From Patescibacteria group bacterium (GTDB lineage: Bacteria; Patescibacteriota; Minisyncoccia; Phycocordibacterales; Phycocordibacteraceae): a DNA stretch of 64,000 nt. This document shows positions 1 through 63,776 of the stretch, piece by piece (within the stretch, counting starts at the first letter, position 1; each line of letters opens with the position of its first letter). Both the position numbers and the translations under genes were made by a program. The DNA lies in the NCBI GenBank assembly GCA_024653825.1, contig JANLHF010000039.1, positions 6,945 to 70,944 of the forward strand. Direction: 5' to 3'. The notes beneath the pieces are model-generated. The model saw only the letters and a program-made list of their open reading frames with translations. It did no database searches and had not been told where the DNA came from.

Positions 1-1617
1 CCGCACCTGCGCTTTCTTGAGAATCAGGTAAAGAAGTTGGAACGCGCTGATGCGTTGCGCACCGATCTCGTCGGCCTCGCGCAGACCTACTTCGCCATTG
101 AGGACGCGTATCTCGCGCAGGAAAAAGAAAGAGTCATCGGAGAGAAACGCGATGCAGCAGAACGGCTTGCGGTAGCGAGCGCCGAGCTCGATCGCATCGC
201 AGATCCGAAGTCCGCAGACCACGAGACTGTGAAGCGCACTGAGGCTTTGCGGAAGGCGGAGCGGGAAGTGAGCGAACTTTCTGCAGAGCGCGCCACACTC
301 TCACGCGACATAGGACGACTGGAAGGCGCTCTGACCGAAGTGAAGCGTCGGGCCACTTCAGCGGCGCACGAGCCATATGCGAAGGTGTCGCGCGAGGAGC
401 TTGAAGCACTACACAGTGAGGTTGTACGACAGGCTGAAAACGCCGGAAACAGTAGCGAATCTCTGCGCGCTGCGCTTGATGCGATTAAGCGTACGATACA
501 ATTCTTTTTTTCTCGCTATGGCTCCCCCAGCGATGAGAAGTTTTCTGAAGAGGAAAATACGGCGTTTCGACTGGAACAGGAGCGTACCGCGCTTGCGGAG
601 AAATACACAACGGTTTCCGCTGATCTTGAGAGGGCAGAAACTTCGCGCGCGCGTGCGCGCGAGGCGATGGTTGCTCTTGAAGAGACCGGTCGCGATATTC
701 GCCGCCATATTCTGGACTTCGCACAGGCGAAGGCACATGAAGAAGGCGAGGTGGCAAAGTATGAAGCACGCGAATACGAGCTCGGTGTTCTTACTGAAGA
801 ACTTGAACGAGATAAAAGGGAAGTTCTCGCGATTGGTGGGACCGCCGCCCTCTCTTATGCATCGCTCTCACAACTGCCGAGCGAAGATCGCAAGACACAA
901 GAAGAGCGCCAGCGTATTCTGGAGCGCACAAAGATCCGTTTAGAAGAAGCAGGTGGGACAGGCGAAGAGCTTCGACAGGAGCATAAAGAGGTGTCTGAGC
1001 GAGAAGCATTCCTCGCCACCGAACTCGACGATCTCGCGAAATCAGCGGCGGGTCTGCGCGAACTCATCCACGATTTAGATACGGAATTACAGAAGCATTT
1101 CTCCGAAGGGCTCGCCAAGGTCAACGCTTCGTTCGGTGAATATTTTGCACTTATGTTCGGCGGTGGTGGCGCACGGCTCACGCTTGAAGAGCCTGATGAA
1201 CCGGACGAAGACGACCTTGAGTCTGAAGAAGAAATGGATGAATTGCCGAAGGAGAAAGAACGTCAGGGTATAGAAATAGCGGTGAATCTGCCGAAGAAGA
1301 AGGTGCGCTCGCTGATGCAACTCTCGGGCGGGGAGCGCGCGCTCACCTCTATCGCGCTCATATTCGCGATGAGTCAGGTGAATCCGCCACCATTTTTGAT
1401 ACTGGACGAGACTGATGCCGCGCTCGACGAGGCGAACAGCCGTCGCTATGGGGACATGATAGAAAACCTCGCGAAGAAGAGTCAGCTCATCGTCATCACC
1501 CACAACCGCGAGACCATGAGCCGCACCGGCATCCTCTACGGCGTCACGATGGGCGGCGACGGAGTCTCCAAATTATTGTCAGTAAAATTCGAAGAAGCAG
1601 TACAAGTAGCGAAGTAG
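1..1617 (+). CDS. smc: Chromosome segregation protein SMC, C-terminal part (5' end outside the window)
   Basis: The frame is open from position 1. The product is a coiled-coil region followed by the C-terminal ABC signature and Walker B region (LSGGERALTSIALIFAM...LILDETDAALDE). Confidence 0.85.
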   Translation, partial: PHLRFLENQVKKLERADALRTDLVGLAQTYFAIEDAYLAQEKERVIGEKRDAAERLAVASAELDRIADPKSADHETVKRTEALRKAEREVSELSAERATLSRDIGRLEGALTEVKRRATSAAHEPYAKVSREELEALHSEVVRQAENAGNSSESLRAALDAIKRTIQFFFSRYGSPSDEKFSEEENTAFRLEQERTALAEKYTTVSADLERAETSRARAREAMVALEETGRDIRRHILDFAQAKAHEEGEVAKYEAREYELGVLTEELERDKREVLAIGGTAALSYASLSQLPSEDRKTQEERQRILERTKIRLEEAGGTGEELRQEHKEVSEREAFLATELDDLAKSAAGLRELIHDLDTELQKHFSEGLAKVNASFGEYFALMFGGGGARLTLEEPDEPDEDDLESEEEMDELPKEKERQGIEIAVNLPKKKVRSLMQLSGGERALTSIALIFAMSQVNPPPFLILDETDAALDEANSRRYGDMIENLAKKSQLIVITHNRETMSRTGILYGVTMGGDGVSKLLSVKFEEAVQVAK

Positions 1618-6158: not shown

Positions 6159-6824
6159 ATGAAATTTCACTTAATCACACTTTTCCCCGAGGCCTGTGAC
6201 GCATATTTGAGCGCGTCCATCATCGGTCGCGCGCGGAAGGAAAAAAAGATTTCAATAAAATATCAGAACCCCCGCGACTTCGTCGCGGGGCCGGCGGGTA
6301 GCTATAAGAAGGTAGACGAGAAGCCGTATGGTGGTGGCCCCGGCATGGTAATGATGGCACTTCCAATCGTCAAAGCCGTCCAGAAATCACTTGGGGGTCG
6401 GACCCCCAAGTTGAAGAATCCTGTCATCGTCTGGTTTAAGCCGGGGGCGAAGCAGTTCACCAATAAAGATGCGGACGCGCTCGCGAAATATAGCGACGTG
6501 GTGCTCGTCTGTGGTCGCTACGAGGGCATAGATGAGCGCGCGAAGAAGATTTTAAAAACAATGGCGACAGTAAAAGAATTCGCCGTCGGCGAAGCGGTCT
6601 ACACCGGCGGGGAAGTCCCAGCGCTCGCGATAGTAGACGCCGTCACGCGTCGTCTGCCGGGCGTCCTCGGCAAGGACGCCTCCGTCGAGGAGCGCCGCAT
6701 CGCCTCCTCGGCCGTCTACACCCGTCCCGAAACGATTTCATACAAAGGCAAGAACTATAAAGTGCCAAAGGTCCTCAAAACCGGTCATCACACAAAGATT
6801 GACGCGTGGCGGAAGAAGAAATAA
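6159..6824 (+). CDS. trmD: tRNA (guanine37-N1)-methyltransferase TrmD
   Basis: The YGGGPGMVM motif and the SPOUT C-terminal region are present. The gene contains an in-frame 23-bp palindromic insertion (SLGGRTPKL). Confidence 0.85.
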   Translation: MKFHLITLFPEACDAYLSASIIGRARKEKKISIKYQNPRDFVAGPAGSYKKVDEKPYGGGPGMVMMALPIVKAVQKSLGGRTPKLKNPVIVWFKPGAKQFTNKDADALAKYSDVVLVCGRYEGIDERAKKILKTMATVKEFAVGEAVYTGGEVPALAIVDAVTRRLPGVLGKDASVEERRIASSAVYTRPETISYKGKNYKVPKVLKTGHHTKIDAWRKKK

Positions 6825-18451: not shown

Positions 18452-18691
18452 CTAGGTCGTCGATGATTCAACCAATTCCCTGGCGAAATGTTCGTCCCCG
18501 AGGGCTTTCTCGAGTAGAACCGCGGCAATTTGGCCGACAGTAGCGTTTCCGATTCTCGAATCCGCATGGTCTCGTGTCGCCAGCAGCATACAAACTCCAT
18601 CGTCGGCGACTTTTGTAGCAGCGTTGGCCAGTTCAACTGGGGAATATTTCGATGGAGGCCGTGGCTTTCGTGTGGCTAGCTCACTCTTCAT
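18452..18691 (-). pseudogene. Possible remnant of an NmrA/SDR-like NAD(P)-binding protein C-terminus (79-aa ORF)
   Basis: The peptide ...RIGNATVGQIAAVLLEKALGDEH... resembles the C-terminal region of NmrA-like proteins. There is no upstream Rossmann part, and it sits in a 466-bp mostly noncoding gap. Confidence 0.2.
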
Positions 18692-18805
18692 TGTATCTCC
18701 TTTTCATACATATGCCCGATGTATTCGGGTTGCAGGGAATCCTGCCAAGAACTTCAACCTGCCTCTCTTTATACACCATCTCCATAAATTATCAAGGTAT
18801 CCCCA

Positions 18806-18832
18806 AAGATTGTCCTATAGGACAGAGTTTGG
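18806..18832. repeat. 27-bp direct repeat, copy 1, containing the perfect 14-bp palindrome TGTCCTATAGGACA (putative operator)
   Basis: AAGATTGTCCTATAGGACAGAGTTTGG here and AAGATTGTCCTATAGGACGAAGTTTGG at 19462..19488 flank the wHTH gene. Confidence 0.7.
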
Positions 18833-18857
18833 GTAGGCGGTGAGGTAGCATGTATGC

Positions 18858-19445
18858 ATGGGAACACTAGAAAAAAGTGCTAAGAAGGAACGGCGATGGG
18901 GAGCGTTTCAACAGGCGATGCTCTACGCCGCACTCGGTGGCATCATGGTCGCTACAGGTGCGGTTCCGGACTTCCGCAAGATTTTGAAATACTATGCGGG
19001 AAGCAAAAAAGACTCTCGTTTCAACTACCGTGCGAAGACGGTACTTGGGCGCCTTGTCGCCAAAGGATTCATCAAGTTTGAAGAGCGTGACGGGAGACGC
19101 TATGCGCGCCTGACTGAAACTGGTAAACGAGTGCTGGACCTGGAGCTGTTGAAAGATGAAGGTGTGCGGAAACCAAAACGTTGGGATAATCGATGGAGAG
19201 TTGTTATTTTCGACATCCCGGAACGTAGACGGAAAGTACGTGTCAATCTGCGCTCTTTTATGGGGAAGTACGGATTTGTAAGATTGCAGGACAGCGTCTG
19301 GATATATCCATACGATTGTGAAGAGCTCATTGCCCTCGCGAAAGCACAGTTCCGTATCGGAGTGGATGTGCTCTATATGATCGTCGAGCGGCTCGAGAAT
19401 GACGCGCCTCTGCGAAAACAATTCGGCTTGCCAGCCGCAACCTGA
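18858..19445 (+). CDS. PaaX-like transcriptional regulator (N-terminal winged helix plus a C-terminal Cas2-like/ferredoxin-like domain)
   Basis: The wHTH region is RLVAKGFIKFEERDGRRYARLTETG. The C-terminal WRVVIFDIPERRRKVRVNLRSFMGKYGFVRLQDSVWIYP resembles Cas2/PaaX_C. Confidence 0.55.
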   Translation: MGTLEKSAKKERRWGAFQQAMLYAALGGIMVATGAVPDFRKILKYYAGSKKDSRFNYRAKTVLGRLVAKGFIKFEERDGRRYARLTETGKRVLDLELLKDEGVRKPKRWDNRWRVVIFDIPERRRKVRVNLRSFMGKYGFVRLQDSVWIYPYDCEELIALAKAQFRIGVDVLYMIVERLENDAPLRKQFGLPAAT

Positions 19446-19461
19446 ATATCAGGTATGACCT

Positions 19462-19488
19462 AAGATTGTCCTATAGGACGAAGTTTGG
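19462..19488. repeat. 27-bp direct repeat, copy 2 (same 14-bp palindrome), immediately after the wHTH gene stop
   Basis: 25 of 27 positions are identical to the copy at 18806..18832. Confidence 0.7.
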
Positions 19489-19508
19489 AGATATTGTATT
19501 GGAAAGAA

Positions 19509-19540
19509 GAAAACGCACGGGGGAACCCCGTGCGTTTTGG
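19509..19540. terminator. Bidirectional intrinsic terminator
   Basis: A 13-bp stem (aaaacgcacgggg/ccccgtgcgtttt) is flanked by an A-tract and a T-tract. Confidence 0.6.
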
Positions 19541-19562: not shown

Positions 19563-20096
19563 TCAAACGGCCGGGATCATCATCCCGCCCTGGTAAGAAT
19601 GCCAGCCCAGGACTTCTCCGGGTGCTCCCGAGAGTCCCTGCCCTTTTCTCTGGATCTTTTCGTATCCCCTGAAGAAATTCGAGCCCTGGAAGTCGGTACG
19701 GAATGCGGGCTCGACGTCGTTGTGGTAGACGAGGCCTTCGTGAACAAACCCGTCCTGTCCGCGGCCGCCGAAGAATTTCTTCTCGGCGTGAGCGGCACTG
19801 AGCGCCGCCTTGAGGCAGGGAAGGGCTTCCTCCTGGCAGTGGCCGAAGCATTGTAGCGTCCATATCGGTACGTCTTCGTGGGCCATCAGCAACATGCCGA
19901 TGCCACGCGGTCCGAGAGGAGTGAGGATAGAACCGCCCTCGACTGTCCAGGGTCCTTCGGCGAAGTAAGTCCGCGGCATGCCGGCGATGTCGGAATAATC
20001 CGTGTAATCGGGCCCCATCGCTTTGAAGAACATCTCCTCCATTTTGGCGAGGCAGGCAGGCGTCTTTACAAACTCCCCAAGCTCCTCAGTATTCAT
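19563..20096 (-). CDS. Hypothetical protein (177 aa)
   Basis: The ORF has coding-like composition and is followed by the bidirectional terminator. Confidence 0.45.
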   Translation of the reverse strand: MNTEELGEFVKTPACLAKMEEMFFKAMGPDYTDYSDIAGMPRTYFAEGPWTVEGGSILTPLGPRGIGMLLMAHEDVPIWTLQCFGHCQEEALPCLKAALSAAHAEKKFFGGRGQDGFVHEGLVYHNDVEPAFRTDFQGSNFFRGYEKIQRKGQGLSGAPGEVLGWHSYQGGMMIPAV

Positions 20097-20190
20097 TCAC
20101 AGCTCCTTTAGCGCAGTTGTAAGAACTTCGTTGCAGACTTCATTTATACACGATTTATTTGCATCGTCAAATGCCTGCTATACTGCCCAC

Positions 20191-21051
20191 ATGAAGCAGA
20201 AAAGGGCAGTGAGGAACCACGGGAAGAAAAAAAGAGTACCGATTAAGCACTGGAGCCATTCCAGCCTAATGTCCTTCCTAAGGAATCCGCTTGCTTGGTA
20301 CAAGCGCTATGTGGAGGAGATATACGATACGCCGACGACGCCGGCGGCGGTTATCGGCAGCGCGGGGCACCTCGCGCTGGAGCACTATTATTCGGGTGCG
20401 CCCAAGGATATCGCGATACAAAAAGGGTTGGAATACGTGCGCAGTATTGGCGACTTTGAAATTAATTTTGGTCAAGCGAAAAGCAAAGCGGCGCGGCGCG
20501 CGAAGCGCGCCGCGATGGAGGCCGACTATCTACGCGCCATCGGGTATTACCTCGCGCGTCCGCCGAAGCACAAAGTGCTCGGCGTGGAGGTACGGGGTGT
20601 GGTTGAGGTTGAAGGGCTGCCAATCCCCATCAAGGCGATTTCAGACTTGGTGGTGGAATCAAAAGTGGAGAAAGGAGCGGTGGACATTGTGGACCATAAA
20701 TTCGTCGCTTCTTTCAGCAAGGGAGGCGCGGCGAAATCGCTCTTCGTGATTCAGGCACTTTTTAATTACTACACCGTACGGGAGATGTTCGGGAAGCCGG
20801 TCCGGCGCTTTATCGTGTATGAGTGTAAGAAAACAAAGAACGCCGACGGATCCCCGCAGATGCGACGATACGAAATCGATTTCCAGAAGCACGCTCAAGA
20901 TTTCAAAGTCTTCCATCGGCTCATCAACGATGCGACCGAGGAGATTTCGCGCCGGCGCGTGTATCTACCAAACCCCTCCGATATGTTTGAAGGCGACAGT
21001 TCTTTTGATATTTATCGGTTGGAATTAGTTTCCGAGGGCCTGGTCGATTAA
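20191..21051 (+). CDS. PD-(D/E)XK nuclease superfamily protein (RecB/Cas4-like core without an Fe-S cluster)
   Basis: The N-terminal WSHSSLMSFLRNPLAWYKRY and the D...DIVDHK catalytic motifs are present. The start is an internal ATG at 20191, preceded by a TATACT box. Confidence 0.6.
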   Translation: MKQKRAVRNHGKKKRVPIKHWSHSSLMSFLRNPLAWYKRYVEEIYDTPTTPAAVIGSAGHLALEHYYSGAPKDIAIQKGLEYVRSIGDFEINFGQAKSKAARRAKRAAMEADYLRAIGYYLARPPKHKVLGVEVRGVVEVEGLPIPIKAISDLVVESKVEKGAVDIVDHKFVASFSKGGAAKSLFVIQALFNYYTVREMFGKPVRRFIVYECKKTKNADGSPQMRRYEIDFQKHAQDFKVFHRLINDATEEISRRRVYLPNPSDMFEGDSSFDIYRLELVSEGLVD

Positions 21052-24877: not shown

Positions 24878-25671
24878 TACGTATAGGATACAACAATCAC
24901 ACGGGGCTTGCTGTACTGGTCAGTGCGTATCTCGGCCGTGAGGCCCTGTTCCACAAAAAGCGCGGCCGCAGCGGCCGCGTGTCCGCGGTCGCACTCGATC
25001 CACGCGACTCCGCCTTTGGCGAGATGCCTTGGGAGCGCGAGCGCGATGCGGCGGATATAATCGAGTCCGTCATCTCCGGCCATGAGTGCGAGAGAGGGTT
25101 CGTAGTCGGCGACGCTCGGCGGAAGCACATGGCTAGTGGGGACGTAGGGCGGGTTCGTAGCGATGACATCAAATTTCATATCCTCAAATGGTTCAAGGAG
25201 GTCGCCGATGCAAATGTGTGCGTGGCTCTCGTCCAGATTATTTTCTTGAATGTTTTTTAAAATAGTCGCCTTGTGTGCGGGATCGATCTCGCCGAAATAG
25301 ACTTGTGCATTGGGAATCTTCGCGAGCGCCGCACACCCGATGGCGCCGCTCCCTGCACATAAATCAAGGAATTTCAGTTGCTCGCCGGCAGGCCCAAAAG
25401 TGGGCGCGCTCCGGGCCGCTAGGCCAAGTCTTACCCCCACTTTTGGGCCTGCCGGTTCGCTTTTCAACAATTGCTCGGTCCACCACTCAGTCTCGGGGCG
25501 GGGGATGAGTGGCTTGGAATCTAGATAGATTTTCAGACCCAGAAAGGGTTGCCAGCCGATGACGTAGGCCAGCGGCTCGCCTCCGGCGAGCCGCTTCCTA
25601 TCTTCTTCAAAATGGGGGGTTCGTACCCCATCATATTTTTCTTCCAGAAGATGTTGTTCGTCTTTAGTCAT
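24877..25671 (-). CDS. prmC: Release factor glutamine methyltransferase PrmC/HemK
   Basis: It has the NPPY motif and an LDLCAGSGAIG SAM-binding site. It carries an in-frame 72-bp hairpin-element insertion. Confidence 0.85.
   Translation of the reverse strand: MTKDEQHLLEEKYDGVRTPHFEEDRKRLAGGEPLAYVIGWQPFLGLKIYLDSKPLIPRPETEWWTEQLLKSEPAGPKVGVRLGLAARSAPTFGPAGEQLKFLDLCAGSGAIGCAALAKIPNAQVYFGEIDPAHKATILKNIQENNLDESHAHICIGDLLEPFEDMKFDVIATNPPYVPTSHVLPPSVADYEPSLALMAGDDGLDYIRRIALALPRHLAKGGVAWIECDRGHAAAAAALFVEQGLTAEIRTDQYSKPRVIVVSYT
25384..25455. repeat. E2 hairpin element, copy 1, in-frame inside prmC: a 21-bp perfect inverted repeat around a 30-nt conserved core
   Basis: The sequence is gccggcaggcccaaaagtggg - CGCGCTCCGGGCCGCTAGGCCAAGTCTTAC - cccacttttgggcctgccgg. 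The core is shared with the copy at 63436..63466. Confidence 0.7.
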
Positions 25672-31372: not shown

Positions 31373-33076
31373 TTATGCCGAAGGTGCAGGGCGGATGAGG
31401 TCGTGCTTGATATCGGCAAACGTGCCGCCAACCTTCTTGCCGGGGTTGAAAATCCCTTGCGGGTCAAACATCTTTTTCGTTTTTTCAAAAAGTTCTATCA
31501 TTTCTGCACCGAAGAGCATCGGGAGATAGGGCGTGCGCACGATACCGTCATTGTGCTCGCCGGTCGTGGTGCCACCGGCCTCGATAACCATTTTATACAC
31601 CTTGGGCGCGAGGTCGAGAATGACTTGGCGATTCTCCTCCTTGGTGAGGTCCATCAGCGGAATGATGTGAATGTTACCGTCGCCAATGTGGCCCGCAACG
31701 GTATAAATCATATTGTCTTTGTATTCATCGAGAAGAGCATTCAGCTTCGGCAAGAATGTCGGATAACTTGAAGGCGGGACGACGAAGTCGTCGATGAAGG
31801 GCGAGGAGACGAGTCCGTGGAGATTCTTGCGCAAGAGGTTGAAGCTCTCGCGGCGCACTATCCAATACTTCTCTGACTCTTTTTCATTTTTTTCAATCTT
31901 CGTTTGTAAATGCAAGTCGGCCAAGGCCTCCTTGGCCGCCAGAGCTTTAGCGTCGGCGGCTTCGATAGTGTCTTCGGCAAATTCGGCCATTAATATCATC
32001 TTGGGCACACCGCCGGTCGCGACCATCGCCGCCTCGGGGATGAAGTCGATGCCGAGCCGCACCGCCTTTATAAGCCCCATTTGCGAGAGCATTTGGGGCA
32101 TAAACTTCACCGCGAGGGTGAAGGTGTGGTCGTCGTAGCTCTCAAACGATTCGGGCTTCTGGAGCAGAACGCGCCGGACAATCTCGGGAAGGATGTTGAG
32201 GTCGTAGAGGAAGCACACAAGCATCGCACGGTGCTCCTTGGGCTTCACCAACCCGAGCTTCGCCTGCGTCCAGAGCGCGAGCGTGCCTTGCGAGCCGCAG
32301 ACGAGCTTCGCAAGGTTGAAGCTGCCGGCGGTCGAATCTTTCACGCTCCAGAGCGCGTAGCCGGCAGAGTTTTTAGATACCTTCGGTCGGTGGCCTTCAA
32401 TGAGCCCGGCGTTCTCGGTGAGAAGCGCGTCCATCTCGCGATAAATCCCGCCTTCAAGCGTGTTCAACTTTTTCTTTTCTTCTAGTTCTGCGTATGACAG
32501 TGCCTTAAAGGTAGTTTGTGAGCCATCAGAGAGAACGACGTCGACTTCTTCGACATACTTTTCTGTCTTGCCGTACTTCAGTGTGCGCTCGCCGCCGGAA
32601 TTGTTTGCCACGATGCCGCCCATCGCGGCTATCTCGCGCGAGGCGGGGTAGGAGGGGAGTATTAAACCTTTTTCCAGTGTCGCCTTTTCAAAATCCCTAT
32701 AAAACACCCCTGGCTCCGTCACCGCGTACCCGTCAATTTCACTTGGGGGTCGGACCCCCAAGTCAGAAGTGACTTCGCCCATATGATTCATATGCTCGGT
32801 AAAAGAGACCACGACGCCGGTCGTGAGAGGGCCGCCCGACATGTCGGTACCGGCGGAGCGCGCCGCGAGCGAAATTTCAGTACCTCGACTTCGCTCGGCA
32901 CCTACGACGCGAACGAGTTCGGAAACATCGTTCGCGTCTACGGGATACACCACCAGCTCCGGCATCCGCGTAAACAGGGACGTGTCGCGACTAAGCTTCG
33001 CAAGCGTCGCGCCGTCATCACTCACCTCGCCCTTCATCACCCCCTTCAGCGCATTTTTCAAATCTTCTGTGGTCAT
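31373..33076 (-). CDS. FAD-linked oxidase (GlcD/D-lactate dehydrogenase family)
   Basis: It has the FAD_binding_4 N-domain (RSAGTDMSGGPLT) and a C-terminal GGTTTGEHNDGIVR region. The start is an internal ATG at 33076. An in-frame E1 palindrome encodes TSDLGVRPPSE. Confidence 0.8.
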   Translation of the reverse strand: MTTEDLKNALKGVMKGEVSDDGATLAKLSRDTSLFTRMPELVVYPVDANDVSELVRVVGAERSRGTEISLAARSAGTDMSGGPLTTGVVVSFTEHMNHMGEVTSDLGVRPPSEIDGYAVTEPGVFYRDFEKATLEKGLILPSYPASREIAAMGGIVANNSGGERTLKYGKTEKYVEEVDVVLSDGSQTTFKALSYAELEEKKKLNTLEGGIYREMDALLTENAGLIEGHRPKVSKNSAGYALWSVKDSTAGSFNLAKLVCGSQGTLALWTQAKLGLVKPKEHRAMLVCFLYDLNILPEIVRRVLLQKPESFESYDDHTFTLAVKFMPQMLSQMGLIKAVRLGIDFIPEAAMVATGGVPKMILMAEFAEDTIEAADAKALAAKEALADLHLQTKIEKNEKESEKYWIVRRESFNLLRKNLHGLVSSPFIDDFVVPPSSYPTFLPKLNALLDEYKDNMIYTVAGHIGDGNIHIIPLMDLTKEENRQVILDLAPKVYKMVIEAGGTTTGEHNDGIVRTPYLPMLFGAEMIELFEKTKKMFDPQGIFNPGKKVGGTFADIKHDLIRPAPSA

Positions 33077-33352
33077 ATGAGAACAGTATATACTAGGGGG
33101 ATGGAATGGTTCGAGTCCCGGTTCTGAGTCAATCAAGGCAACTAAAAGGCGAATTCTCGAAAAAGTACCATCAGCCAGTTTTAAGGTTGTAGACCAAGGA
33201 TTCACTGGTTTCATGGCGAGTCAGGCTCGTGACGATTTCTTTAAGTAATGAGTCTTTTTTGAGCAGTAATAAGATTCCAACACCGCCTCGCACAGCCAGC
33301 AGGCACCTTTCTTCCAACCCTCCCGAGTCCCGCTGCTCAAACGGAATTGAAA

Positions 33353-34055: not shown

Positions 34056-34302
34056 GACAATGTCCTCCCAAAGAAAATCTGTCCAGGGTCATAGTAGAGA
34101 ATCGGATGCAACAAGTCAAAGTGAAGAACAGCCGAAAGACACCTTTCTTCCCACCCTCCAGGGCACGAGTAATTCTTTGAACGGCTCAGACCGTCTGAGG
34201 CGTTTGGCGCCATTATGATACTCTTGCAAAAAATTGGGACTTTGGTACTATCTTAAACGGCTGCATTTTTGGCCGCACTTCAACCAAAGAAGGAGAAGTC
34301 TA

Positions 34303-61089: not shown

Positions 61090-61116
61090 GAACGGCTCAG
61101 ACGGTCTGAGCCGTTC
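61090..61116. repeat. E4 27-bp perfect palindrome, GAACGGCTCAGAC-G-GTCTGAGCCGTTC
   Basis: A second copy (GAACGGCTCAGAC-C-GTCTGAGGCGTT) is at 34179..34204. Confidence 0.65.
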
Positions 61117-62008: not shown

Positions 62009-62856
62009 CCTTTGTATTCCGTTTCGCGTTTGCCTTCGGGAATGACGCGCAGGACACGGAAAACGCCCGCGGCGTTTTCCGCGGAGATGATTTTCATACG
62101 CTTTCCGTTTTCAAAGAAATACGTGCCGATGCTGTCAGCGTAGGCACGATACTTGTTCCAGTTTTCTTGTGCGGGCGCAGTGAGGTCGAGAAGACCGTCT
62201 TCTTTTGCGAGTTTACGCGCGCGCGAAGCGCGCGCGGCGTCCTGGGCGACTGGCGTAATCTCATCGCGTTCAAATACAGGGAGTGTAGTGGTGAGAAGCG
62301 TTGCGCCCATCTCGATGAGTCGCGGGCGCAGTTCACGCGCAGTCTCGTCAGGCACTATCGTCGTTTTTTCTTGTGCGAGGATGTCGCCCGCATCAAGCTC
62401 GCGCACCATTTTCTGTATCGTCACACCGGTCTCAGCTTCGCCCATGAGAAGCGCGGTCTCGAGCGGCGTTGCGCCACGATACTTCGGTAGGAGCGAGTAG
62501 TGCACATTTAAAACGCCTTTCGGGAATGTGGCGATAAGCGCCTCGGGAAATATTTTTCCGTAGGCGACGACGACGGCGTAGTCAGTGTGCTGCGACGCGA
62601 TTGCCGCAATCGCGACGTCATCCAATTTTTCTGGCGTGAGGACTGGAATAGTGTGCGCGAGCGCGAGCTCCTTGGTGAGCGAAGGGGTGAGCGCGAGGCC
62701 ACGTCCTTTTGGCGCGTCCGGAGACGTCACGACAAGTGTCGGTATAAAACCGTGTTCGATTAGAAGCGCGAGCGTGTCGCTTGCGACCTTCGGCGTGCCA
62801 AAATAGACGAAGCGAAGCGAGCCCCTTTGTTGGGCGAACTTATGCGACTGCGGCAT
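62005..62856 (-). CDS. fmt: Methionyl-tRNA formyltransferase
   Basis: The HYSLLPKYRGATP motif is present. The gene overlaps the def stop, giving a def-fmt operon. Confidence 0.85.
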   Translation of the reverse strand: MPQSHKFAQQRGSLRFVYFGTPKVASDTLALLIEHGFIPTLVVTSPDAPKGRGLALTPSLTKELALAHTIPVLTPEKLDDVAIAAIASQHTDYAVVVAYGKIFPEALIATFPKGVLNVHYSLLPKYRGATPLETALLMGEAETGVTIQKMVRELDAGDILAQEKTTIVPDETARELRPRLIEMGATLLTTTLPVFERDEITPVAQDAARASRARKLAKEDGLLDLTAPAQENWNKYRAYADSIGTYFFENGKRMKIISAENAAGVFRVLRVIPEGKRETEYKG

Positions 62857-63409
62857 GGTGGATGTGGATAAGATTCTCCGCGTGGTCGACGAAGAGGACG
62901 CCGTTGAGATGATCGATTTCGTGCTCGAATATCTGCGCTATGAGCCCGCCGCCCCCGCGCTCAAACTTTGTGCCGTCGACGCGACGCGCGCAGACGGTCA
63001 CGCGCTCGTGCCTATTGGTTGTGCCGTACACGCCGCGGACGGAAAGACACCCCTCATCCGCCTTCGCGCGTTTGCGGGAGGTCTTCACAATCTCCGGATT
63101 GATATACACTTCAACCTCAGCACTTGGGGGTCCGACCCCCAAGTCTGACTTGGGGGTCGGACCCCCAAGTGGAGCTTCGGGAAGAGGTGGTAGGGTGCGA
63201 TCTTTCCGCACGATGAAGATGCGATAGGGAATGCCGATCTGTGGTGCGGCGAGCGCGACACCCTCGAGTTCAGGATCGAGCGCTTCGGTCATATCGTCAA
63301 TAATCTTTGCGAGCTTTGGCGTATCGAAAAACTCCTCGGGCACCGGCTCGGCCGTCCCGCGGAGCACCTCGGCACCGTCTTGCACGATTTCTTTCATGTC
63401 GTTTAGCAT
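62840..63409 (-). CDS. def: Peptide deformylase
   Basis: It has the three deformylase motifs GVALAAPQIG, EGCLS and HEIDHLNG. A tandem in-frame E1 palindrome pair encodes LGGPTPKSDLGVGPPS in a surface loop. Confidence 0.85.
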   Translation of the reverse strand: MLNDMKEIVQDGAEVLRGTAEPVPEEFFDTPKLAKIIDDMTEALDPELEGVALAAPQIGIPYRIFIVRKDRTLPPLPEAPLGGPTPKSDLGVGPPSAEVEVYINPEIVKTSRKRAKADEGCLSVRGVYGTTNRHERVTVCARRVDGTKFERGGGGLIAQIFEHEIDHLNGVLFVDHAENLIHIHHAAVA

Positions 63410-63416
63410 AGCTCGT

Positions 63417-63487
63417 CGGCAAAGCAAAATAAAGGCCGCGCTCCGGGCCACTAGGTCAAGTCTTACTACCTTTATTTTACTTTGCCG
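63417..63487. repeat. E2 hairpin element, copy 2 (intergenic, immediately upstream of def): a 19-bp inverted repeat around the conserved core
   Basis: The sequence is cggcaaagcaaaataaagg - CCGCGCTCCGGGCCACTAGGTCAAGTCTTAC - ta - cctttattttactttgccg. Confidence 0.7.
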
Positions 63488-63491
63488 CTCA

Positions 63492-63776
63492 CTAATGTTT
63501 CGTCGGGTCGAGCTCCCACCAGAATTTTTTGCCAAAGTTTTTTGCCTGACTGCAGACACTCTTTAAATAATACAAATCTTGGGTCGGGATTTTCTCCAGC
63601 ACCGTGCCGAGGTGTGCCATCGTCATCGGCGCGAGGCCGTCATTTGCACGAGAGTGATTCAAATGGCGGAGAAAGAATCGCATCATCTCGCCACGTTCGG
63701 TCTGGCGCTTCCTCCCCTTGGGCGCTTCCGCCCGTTTCTTTTCAAACTCGGGGAGTATGTCGCCGATGGATTTCAT
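63492..63776 (-). CDS. Hypothetical small protein (94 aa)
   Basis: ORF between murA and def. Confidence 0.35.
   Translation of the reverse strand: MKSIGDILPEFEKKRAEAPKGRKRQTERGEMMRFFLRHLNHSRANDGLAPMTMAHLGTVLEKIPTQDLYYLKSVCSQAKNFGKKFWWELDPTKH

Follow-up and report, generated by a model that had tools for sequence, protein, structure and literature searches.

A PaaX-like regulator gene of Patescibacteria bracketed by two copies of a putative cognate operator

Auxiliary operators and DNA looping are well established for the lac (O1/O2), deoR, and gal repressors. Among proteins of the PaaX type, Escherichia coli PaaX is an autorepressor; it occludes or competes with RNA polymerase, and its binding site is the 39-bp palindrome TGATTC-N27-GAATCA (PMC9493321). 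This work presents a PaaX-like regulator gene found in a 64,000-nucleotide stretch of the genome of a Patescibacteria group bacterium (assembly GCA_024653825.1, contig JANLHF010000039.1, positions 6,945 to 70,944 of the forward strand), referred to here as the window. The gene is bracketed by two direct copies of a long imperfect palindrome, here termed O1 (upstream) and O2 (downstream). In our best reading, to which we assign a probability of about 0.6, it encodes a PaaX-like repressor that regulates its own gene and has two cognate operators. There is almost no experimental knowledge of transcription control in the mostly uncultivated Patescibacteria (candidate phyla radiation [CPR]), and our literature search found no paper tying PaaX or the PaaX_M domain to these bacteria and none on this regulator family. 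An autoregulated winged helix-turn-helix (wHTH) repressor with an auxiliary operator is a known arrangement; what is new is the self-bracketing two-operator layout, which co-varies over a large, CPR-specific paralog family. The three central features, in coordinates of the window, are as follows.

18858 to 19445, plus strand: the regulator gene, encoding 195 aa, with a winged helix (residues ~15 to 95) and a Cas2-like ferredoxin-fold PaaX_M domain (residues ~107 to 190).
18799 to 18836, no strand: O1, the upstream 38-bp imperfect palindrome, centered at 18817/18818, 40 nt 5' of the ATG; it holds the 27-mer and the perfect 14-bp core described below.
19455 to 19492, no strand: O2, the downstream copy of the palindrome, centered at 19473/19474, 28 nt past the stop (19445); 30 of its 38 positions equal those of O1 in direct orientation.

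An earlier note on this DNA had reported a 27-mer on either side of the gene, and the repeat was found as described: AAGATTGTCCTATAGGACAGAGTTTGG, at 18806 to 18832, ends 25 nt before the ATG (18858), and a copy with two mismatches, at 19462 to 19488, begins 17 nt after the stop codon (19443 to 19445). The window holds no third copy at three or fewer mismatches, and a chance repeat was ruled out because 0 copies are expected (100 shuffles). The palindrome, too, is present only twice in these 64 kb. The full direct repeat spans 38 nt at 87% identity (18795 to 18832 and 19451 to 19488), and both copies form a longer imperfect palindrome, CCAAAgatTGTCCTATAGGACAgagTTTGG, with additional outer arms (CCAAA...TTTGG and beyond). 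The perfect 14-bp palindrome attributed to the repeat, TGTCCTATAGGACA, holds for the upstream copy (14/14; 18811 to 18824) but not for the downstream one (13/14; 19467 to 19480, ...GGACG), and this core is merely the center of a site of ~38 bp. The centers of O1 and O2 are 656 bp apart.

The layout extends well beyond the window. We compared the flanks of 80 homologous loci, seeking the best palindrome pair at each locus. In 62 of the 80 loci, the palindromes on the two sides agree at no fewer than 27 of 38 positions, whereas mismatched locus pairs (the upstream site of one with the downstream site of another) have a median of 18 matches and a 95th percentile of 27. The sites differ strongly across loci, including across paralogs of a single genome (e.g., the five MFMI01 loci): inner-arm entropy reaches 1.9 bits across loci, whereas the two copies within a locus agree at 66 to 98% of positions. 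Orthologs differ in the intergenic DNA around the two sites but not in the core of either site. In a Nomurabacteria subgroup, O1 is present but a clear O2 is missing. The O1-O2 spacing (610 to 731 bp) shows no obvious helical phasing. A simple code linking recognition helix to operator was considered and rejected, as many paralogs have a near-identical helix 3 yet differ in their inner operator sequences.

Additional copies of the palindromes were occasionally observed. A third copy of the locus-specific palindrome occurs in L018 (3661 to 3698), L059 (3801 to 3838), and L031 (7265 to 7302); two of these lie 140 to 280 bp 5' of O1, with apparently noncoding DNA in between, and one lies ~450 bp past the end of a downstream lipase-like gene, so that this gene is bracketed too. 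A metagenome scan with the 16-nt core gave 77 matches, nearly all due to chance; the informative ones were limited to an ortholog with two copies (L086), a site beside a paralog (L091), and a solo copy (L147). The last, on metagenome contig Ga0172379_10006076 (L147, 6545 to 6586), is a window-type operator, GGTATCCCAAAGATTGTCCTATAGGACAAAGTTGCGGATACC, located in frame within miaA (…RYPKDCPIGQSCGYQ…). The length of this miaA is unchanged relative to solved MiaA proteins and structures, and no regulator gene is present on the 13 kb of the contig that were covered.

The product had been labeled a PaaX-like wHTH/Cas2-like regulator, and this label is borne out by a Pfam match, a fold search, and NCBIfam profiles. 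Residues 107 to 177 match Pfam PaaX_M (PF20803, "PaaX central Cas2-like domain") with an E value of 4.5e-19 (68.8 bits versus a cutoff of 24). An AlphaFold model of the 195-aa protein has a predicted local distance difference test (pLDDT) score of 65.6, with a good C-terminal beta-alpha-beta-beta-alpha-beta domain and a poor N-terminal part. Its best matches in the Protein Data Bank are Rv0674 (3kfw) and E. coli PaaX (8a39), followed by Cas2 chains and PadR regulators; 3kfw and 8a39 align over 141 to 176 columns with the N-terminal part included, the wHTH of the model being of low confidence. The Pfam N-terminal domain of PaaX gave no match at an E value of ≤0.1. In this region, the only wHTH matches were to PadR and DUF6293_C, both below threshold (for PadR, PF03551, an E value of 0.014 and 15.8 bits versus a cutoff of 27), and PadR structures are partial fold matches only. 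No Pfam match to PaaX_C was obtained, and the protein stops at residue 195. An N-terminal transmembrane helix, suggested by hydrophobic residues at ~17 to 38, was judged unlikely, as the model has a continuous helix over residues 3 to 27; the hydrophobic stretch probably corresponds to the first wHTH helix of PaaX.

Many family members are named "CRISPR-associated endonuclease Cas2" in NCBI records. Relatives are called "Cas2" or "PaaX" depending on the source because a partial cas2 match passes its cutoff while the PaaX equivalog score falls far below its own. Specifically, NCBIfam cas2 (TIGR01573) gives 27.5 bits versus a cutoff of 24.5, yet covers only profile positions 2 to 38 of 96 (36/96), and the PaaX equivalog (TIGR02277) gives 34.2 bits versus a cutoff of 264.55, over profile positions 38 to 131 of 279 only. 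Pfam Cas2 (PF09827), at 22.5 bits, is below its cutoff of 23.8. The Cas2 name is probably a misannotation, considering the partial match, the fusion to a wHTH, and the lack of CRISPR context: the 64-kb window contains no CRISPR-like repeat array, the called neighbors in the close relative L158 include no cas genes, and no cas1 was seen in the neighborhoods examined, for which no dedicated cas1 model was used. In our best reading, the regulator is neither a bona fide PaaX nor a CRISPR Cas2.

A word-indexed search returned 1729 matches to the regulator, and every named one is from Patescibacteria. Clustering at 50% identity gave 255 clusters at an E value of ≤1e-30 and 2306 at ≤1e-10, and most of the 150 best representatives listed are ~185 to 200 aa long. 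Species-representative genomes contain 512 confirmed stretches, with several paralogs per genome (five loci from MFMI01, for instance). No relatives were found on viral contigs, and a phage- or plasmid-borne element was ruled out on this ground. Paralogs are 37 to 65% identical (median, 49%). Among 81 members down to 37% identity, mean pairwise identity is 64% in the Cas2-like half and 43% in the wHTH half; a variable wHTH joined to a conserved Cas2-like half fits diversified DNA specificity with a common effector domain. Residues invariant in these 81 members include W109, D110, R114, F118, D119, E122, Q144, S146, W148, Y150, P151, D153, C154, and E155. D119 lies in the motif VVIFDIPE and, from the range of the Cas2 profile alignment, presumably occupies the position of the Cas2 catalytic Asp at the end of beta-strand 1. 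Within the 64-kb window, the regulator has no paralog. Elsewhere, paralogs are often found within a few kilobases of each other: L158 has one 5' of dnaG (1 to 209, minus strand), and L006 and L012 are two paralogs ~7 kb apart on JAQUAU010000003.1.

Upstream of the regulator, the following features place O1 in relation to putative promoters.

18846 to 18851, plus strand: -10-like hexamer TAGCAT, 6 nt before the ATG, in a column conserved in alignment A2; a putative promoter element.
18768 to 18797, minus strand: divergent promoter-like element (TTGATA, 18 nt, TATAAA) of putative function, with its -35 adjoining the left edge of O1.
18452 to 18691, minus strand: divergent gene encoding 79 aa, with a GGAG ribosome-binding site.

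The center of O1 lies 39 to 43 nt before the ATG in 36 loci and 18 to 21 nt before it in 16 loci. Of 62 family loci, 49 have a -10-like hexamer whose end lies 6 to 8 nt before the ATG; its commonest form is TAGAAT. For the 18-nt class, the right arm of the palindrome includes the -10, and of the two copies, the downstream one is more symmetric. As no space for a Shine-Dalgarno sequence is left between the -10 and the ATG, the regulator mRNAs are probably leaderless or nearly so. The fixed position of O1 relative to the -10-like box and the ATG, together with co-variation with O2 in 62 of 80 loci, supports the autoregulation by the upstream copy that the earlier note had proposed, and it suggests that O1 is a putative autoregulatory operator. 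The minus-strand slot 5' of the regulator, toward which the divergent element points, holds variable "cargo," with different small genes there in relatives, and the TTTATACACCA block of the divergent element is conserved in syntenic loci.

On the downstream side, three features follow O2.

19510 to 19538, no strand: bidirectional intrinsic-terminator hairpin (13-bp stem, 3-nt loop, flanking A and T runs) between the regulator and the convergent gene.
19563 to 20096, minus strand: convergent DUF5680-like gene encoding 177 aa, which, with the terminator, parts O2 from the PD-(D/E)XK gene.
20179 to 21051 including the -10, plus strand: PD-(D/E)XK nuclease gene encoding 286 aa, with its ATG at 20191 and a -10-like TATACT at 20179 to 20184, 6 nt before the ATG.

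Across the family, O2 begins within a few nucleotides of the stop, with a modal stop-to-center distance of 20 to 28 nt, and in some loci the stop codon forms part of the palindrome. O2 of the window lies in a 3' untranslated stretch ahead of the terminator and is kept in L158, the nearest relative with the same gene order. The gene order around the regulator is shared by at least 16 other loci, comprising dnaG, rpoD, the variable minus-strand gene, the regulator, and genes for the PD-(D/E)XK nuclease, a DsbA-like protein, and an RNase H-like exonuclease, followed by hisS; no paa genes are present among these neighbors. In 9 to 10 syntenic loci, the end of O2 is followed by 3 nt, TATAAT or TATACT, and then 6 to 17 nt to the ATG of the PD-(D/E)XK gene, of which the gene in the window is an ortholog. 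A protein bound at O2 in these relatives would cover the -35 and spacer of the nuclease promoter. In the window and in L158 (89% identical), O2 is instead followed by the terminator and the convergent DUF5680-like gene, and the nuclease gene has its own -10-like box. Since L001 (91% identical) retains the direct O2-nuclease arrangement, this difference is recent. The DUF5680-like gene is missing at this place in L001 and is found 5' of the regulator in L002, L004, and L006. A short conserved motif, GAAGTCGTATTA(A/G), was observed between O2 and the nuclease gene in loci where extra DNA is present (L002, L006, L014, and L057).

It had been suggested that the downstream copy might regulate the convergent region. 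The geometry argues against this: the terminator and the whole body of the convergent gene lie between O2 and that gene's promoter near 20142 to 20171, and in close relatives O2 adjoins the -10 of the codirectional PD-(D/E)XK gene. O2 is nonetheless maintained in other contexts. Its core is invariant in the window and L158 despite the insertion, and in L002 it is a near-perfect palindrome (18/19 arm pairs) with no adjoining promoter. O2 is also kept in six loci of a distant paralog group that have a conserved convergent membrane-protein gene downstream, and it stays beside the stop where other genes are inserted. In other paralogs, the codirectional downstream genes encode RNase HII, amidase, malic enzyme, ComEC, DnaE, MurD, HAD hydrolase, or O-antigen ligase. 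Because O2 is kept whatever gene follows, in several loci at a distance from the next promoter, it belongs to the regulator unit and not simply to the promoter of the next gene. The description of the gene as a bounded cassette is thus upheld as far as the layout goes, O1-gene-O2 being conserved regardless of what lies downstream, but not as regards recent mobility, of which the 37 to 65% identity of paralogs, the synteny of orthologs, the lack of viral copies, and the presence of only two sites in 64 kb give no sign.

The same observations bear on the idea that the window's downstream copy is a functionless, neutral remnant of a duplication at this locus. This idea would fit the separation of the window's O2 from the nuclease promoter and outer arms that are less regular than those of the L001 copy. 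Bracketing in 62 of 80 loci, with protein identity falling to 37%, a core that orthologs share unchanged whether or not they carry the insertion, and the nearly perfect O2 of L002 all speak against it, and we consider it highly unlikely. The position of O2 ahead of the terminator, and thus within the transcript, also raises the possibility of an RNA-level element, i.e., a hairpin in the 3' end of the regulator mRNA that acts as a stabilizer, terminator, or protein-binding RNA, with the likeness to O1 being secondary. O2 can fold as a hairpin, and Cas2-type folds can bind RNA. However, the arm mismatches of O2 show no G.U excess on the sense strand (63 versus 54 A.C), no U-tract follows O2, a separate canonical terminator lies further on, and O1 co-varies with O2 even though O1 would be untranscribed if the mRNA is leaderless. 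A role of O2 as an RNA hairpin or terminator is not supported, and we regard it as very improbable.

The location of the sites could also be read as activation, with the protein at O1 (center near -41) bringing RNA polymerase to a promoter without a good -35, and O2 doing likewise for the next gene. With leaderless mRNAs, O1 centers at 39 to 43 nt before the ATG would correspond to approximately -40 to -42, and neither O1 nor O2 showed a convincing -35 hexamer. The placement of the site with respect to the -10 varies widely, however: approximately -34.5 at the PD-(D/E)XK promoters, -41 at O1, -16.5 in the 18-nt class (where the -10 is inside the site), and -70 in other paralog groups. Furthermore, the characterized PaaX is a repressor (PMC9493321). 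Activation thus appears rather doubtful to us.

At two syntenic loci, L020 and L026, the palindrome before the PD-(D/E)XK gene is of the window's type (AAGATTGTCCTATAGGACG), whereas both the O1 type and the protein lineage of the regulator are different. The slot between rpoD and the nuclease gene holds regulators from at least two protein lineages, and the mismatch suggests either regulator replacement or cross-regulation between paralogs. Such differing lineages and the "foreign" window-type O2 also fit a recombination or nuclease cassette, in which the palindromes would be targets of the Cas2-like domain acting as a site-specific nuclease or recombination factor, and O1-gene-O2 would be, or once have been, self-propagating or exchangeable. 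This would resemble a REP-associated tyrosine transposase (RAYT) gene flanked by repetitive extragenic palindromic (REP) sequences, or a repeat duplicated on integration. In favor of such a cassette, the bracketing direct repeats share polarity, suggesting concerted evolution or duplication; D119 matches what we take to be the catalytic Asp of Cas2, where beta-strand 1 ends, and the D/C/E residues do not vary among members down to 37% identity. Further palindromes are found in L018, L059, and L031, a solo copy lies within the miaA coding sequence, and a second palindrome family of the window (see below) is inserted in frame in housekeeping genes. On the other hand, the 64 kb contain only two copies, the synteny of orthologs from dnaG to hisS is stable, paralogs diverged anciently (median identity, 49%), and viral contigs carry no relatives. 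In the loci examined, no recombinase, transposase, or Cas1 lies beside the gene, O1 is built into the promoter at a fixed distance, and no empty site was found. On balance, a cassette of this kind is improbable.

A related and similarly improbable proposal is that the wHTH-Cas2-like proteins are sequence-specific DNA-processing factors whose invariant D/C/E site would nick or recombine the cognate palindromes and so keep the repeats alike. If it were true, regulator cassettes would be exchangeable between slots, and solo copies would occasionally be seeded, even in coding sequences. The family would then be a Cas2-domain-based counterpart of the RAYT/REP systems in CPR bacteria.

For the autoregulated repressor, which we favor, the following mechanism can be proposed. 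The regulator would be a truncated PaaX-type factor, consisting of a winged helix and a Cas2-like dimerization/sensor domain, whose dimer recognizes the ~38-bp palindrome. O1 would overlap the -35/spacer region of the regulator's own leaderless promoter and adjoin the divergent -35, such that binding would repress regulator synthesis. In the ancestral and common arrangement, O2 ends 3 nt before the -10 of a probably leaderless PD-(D/E)XK gene, which would lead to co-repression by the same protein. In the lineage of the window, the terminator and the convergent DUF5680-like gene now separate O2 from the nuclease gene, the latter with a separate promoter. Here, O2 is probably an auxiliary operator that acts together with O1, 656 bp away, by cooperative binding or looping, or that forms a roadblock; more broadly, it may serve as an auxiliary operator or loop, a roadblock, or a recombination site. 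O2 is slightly more symmetric than O1 on average (Wilcoxon P = 0.007), which would suit a higher-affinity auxiliary site that cooperates with O1. Dimerization and effector sensing are presumably the task of the constant Cas2-like domain and its invariant acidic/Cys cluster. As the position of the site relative to the -10 varies (approximately -16, -34, -41, and -70), occlusion is favored over position-dependent activation.

Several observations weigh against this account. The structural model is only moderate (pLDDT of 65.6), with a poor wHTH, and the promoter and leaderless assignments are consensus-based only. O1 centers near -41 would also suit a class II activator, and the invariant acidic/Cys set of the Cas2-like domain (D110, D119, E122, D153, C154, and E155) may serve catalysis rather than regulation. 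In L020 and L026, O2 and O1 do not match. In several paralog groups, O2 lies ~40 to 60 nt 5' of the next promoter, which is too far to occlude it. Finally, in the 62 family loci, asymmetric positions are shared directly more often than in reverse (39 versus 14 loci; P = 0.0008), with 379 direct and 192 reverse agreements among 640 asymmetric positions. A symmetric dimer site would not lead one to expect direct sharing, which suggests concerted evolution (gene conversion) or a duplication of the repeats, or else functional polarity of the site.

Other repeats were observed in the window. A second, unrelated, GC-rich palindrome, CACTTGGGGGTC(G/C)GACCCCCAAGT, is present in four copies (6389 to 6411, 32741 to 32763, 63122 to 63144, and 63148 to 63170), always within Pfam-supported genes: trmD (6159 to 6824, plus strand), an FAD-linked oxidase gene (31373 to 33214, minus strand), and the peptide deformylase gene (62840 to 63559, minus strand), which holds two tandem copies. 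In Def, the palindrome falls where the protein has ~22 aa more than solved deformylases. It has the look of a palindromic element inserted in frame, recalling the Rickettsia palindromic elements, and it is absent from all 160 other loci fetched. A further palindrome, AACGGCTCAGAC(C/G)GTCTGAG(G/C)CGTT, occurs at 34180 to 34204 and 61091 to 61115; both copies are intergenic and lie just 5' of -10-like boxes (TATGAT and TATACT), making it a candidate operator of another regulator. In addition, a 33-nt repeat of 91% identity, GG(G/C)CGCGCTCCGGGCC(G/A)CTAGG(C/T)CAAGTCTTAC, is found at 25402 to 25434 and 63434 to 63466 and sits in longer inverted repeats (AAAAGTGGG...CCCACTTTT and AAATAAAGG...CCTTTATTT). 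An Rfam scan of the window detected one tRNA and nothing else.

The regulator family may be among the main local regulator families of Patescibacteria. With two copies of the presumed site per gene, dozens of protein-operator pairs can be read from metagenomes and are testable in vitro without cultivation. As such, the family offers a natural data set on the co-evolution of winged-helix specificity and site, and it raises the mechanistic question of why a cognate site should stand right after a regulator's own stop codon.

Compared with known systems, the regulator resembles PaaX, the phenylacetyl-CoA-responsive repressor of the paa operons in E. coli and Pseudomonas, and PaaX-like proteins such as Rv0674 (3kfw) and 3l09, in having a predicted winged helix followed by a Cas2-like PaaX_M domain. 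The inverted-repeat operator of ~38 to 39 bp with widely spaced outer half-sites is likewise shared; autorepression at its own promoter is described for PaaX (PMC9493321) and would fit the geometry and position of the sites here. Unlike PaaX, the regulator has no PaaX_C effector-binding domain (195 aa versus ~300), scores 34 bits against the equivalog cutoff of 264.55, has no paa genes nearby, keeps the Cas2-type Asp in its FDIPE motif, and belongs to a family with several paralogs per genome in Patescibacteria. The review cited above (PMC9493321) describes no second PaaX operator directly 3' of the stop. With Cas2, the regulator shares the ferredoxin-like fold, the beta1-Asp, QxSVW/F motifs, and a partial NCBIfam cas2 match above the cutoff, and a gene between two ~38-bp, partly palindromic direct repeats bears a superficial likeness to a CRISPR repeat-spacer-repeat unit. 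It differs from Cas2 in its wHTH fusion, its coverage of 36/96 profile positions, its subthreshold Pfam score, and the lack of a CRISPR array in the window.

REPtrons (RAYT genes with REP/REPIN sequences) are similar in that a gene is flanked by its own family-specific palindromes and that paralogs each have their own palindrome type. They differ in that the regulator has no HUH/Y1 transposase fold, its repeats are direct rather than inverted, the upstream copy lies in the promoter, and the copy number is low (two in 64 kb, occasional third copies among 80 loci, and one solo copy in the metagenome scan). Finally, as in the lac, deoR, and gal systems, two cognate operators lie hundreds of base pairs apart, one at the promoter and one downstream, the second being here the slightly better palindrome. 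Unlike in those systems, the auxiliary site brackets the regulator's own gene right after the stop, family-wide.

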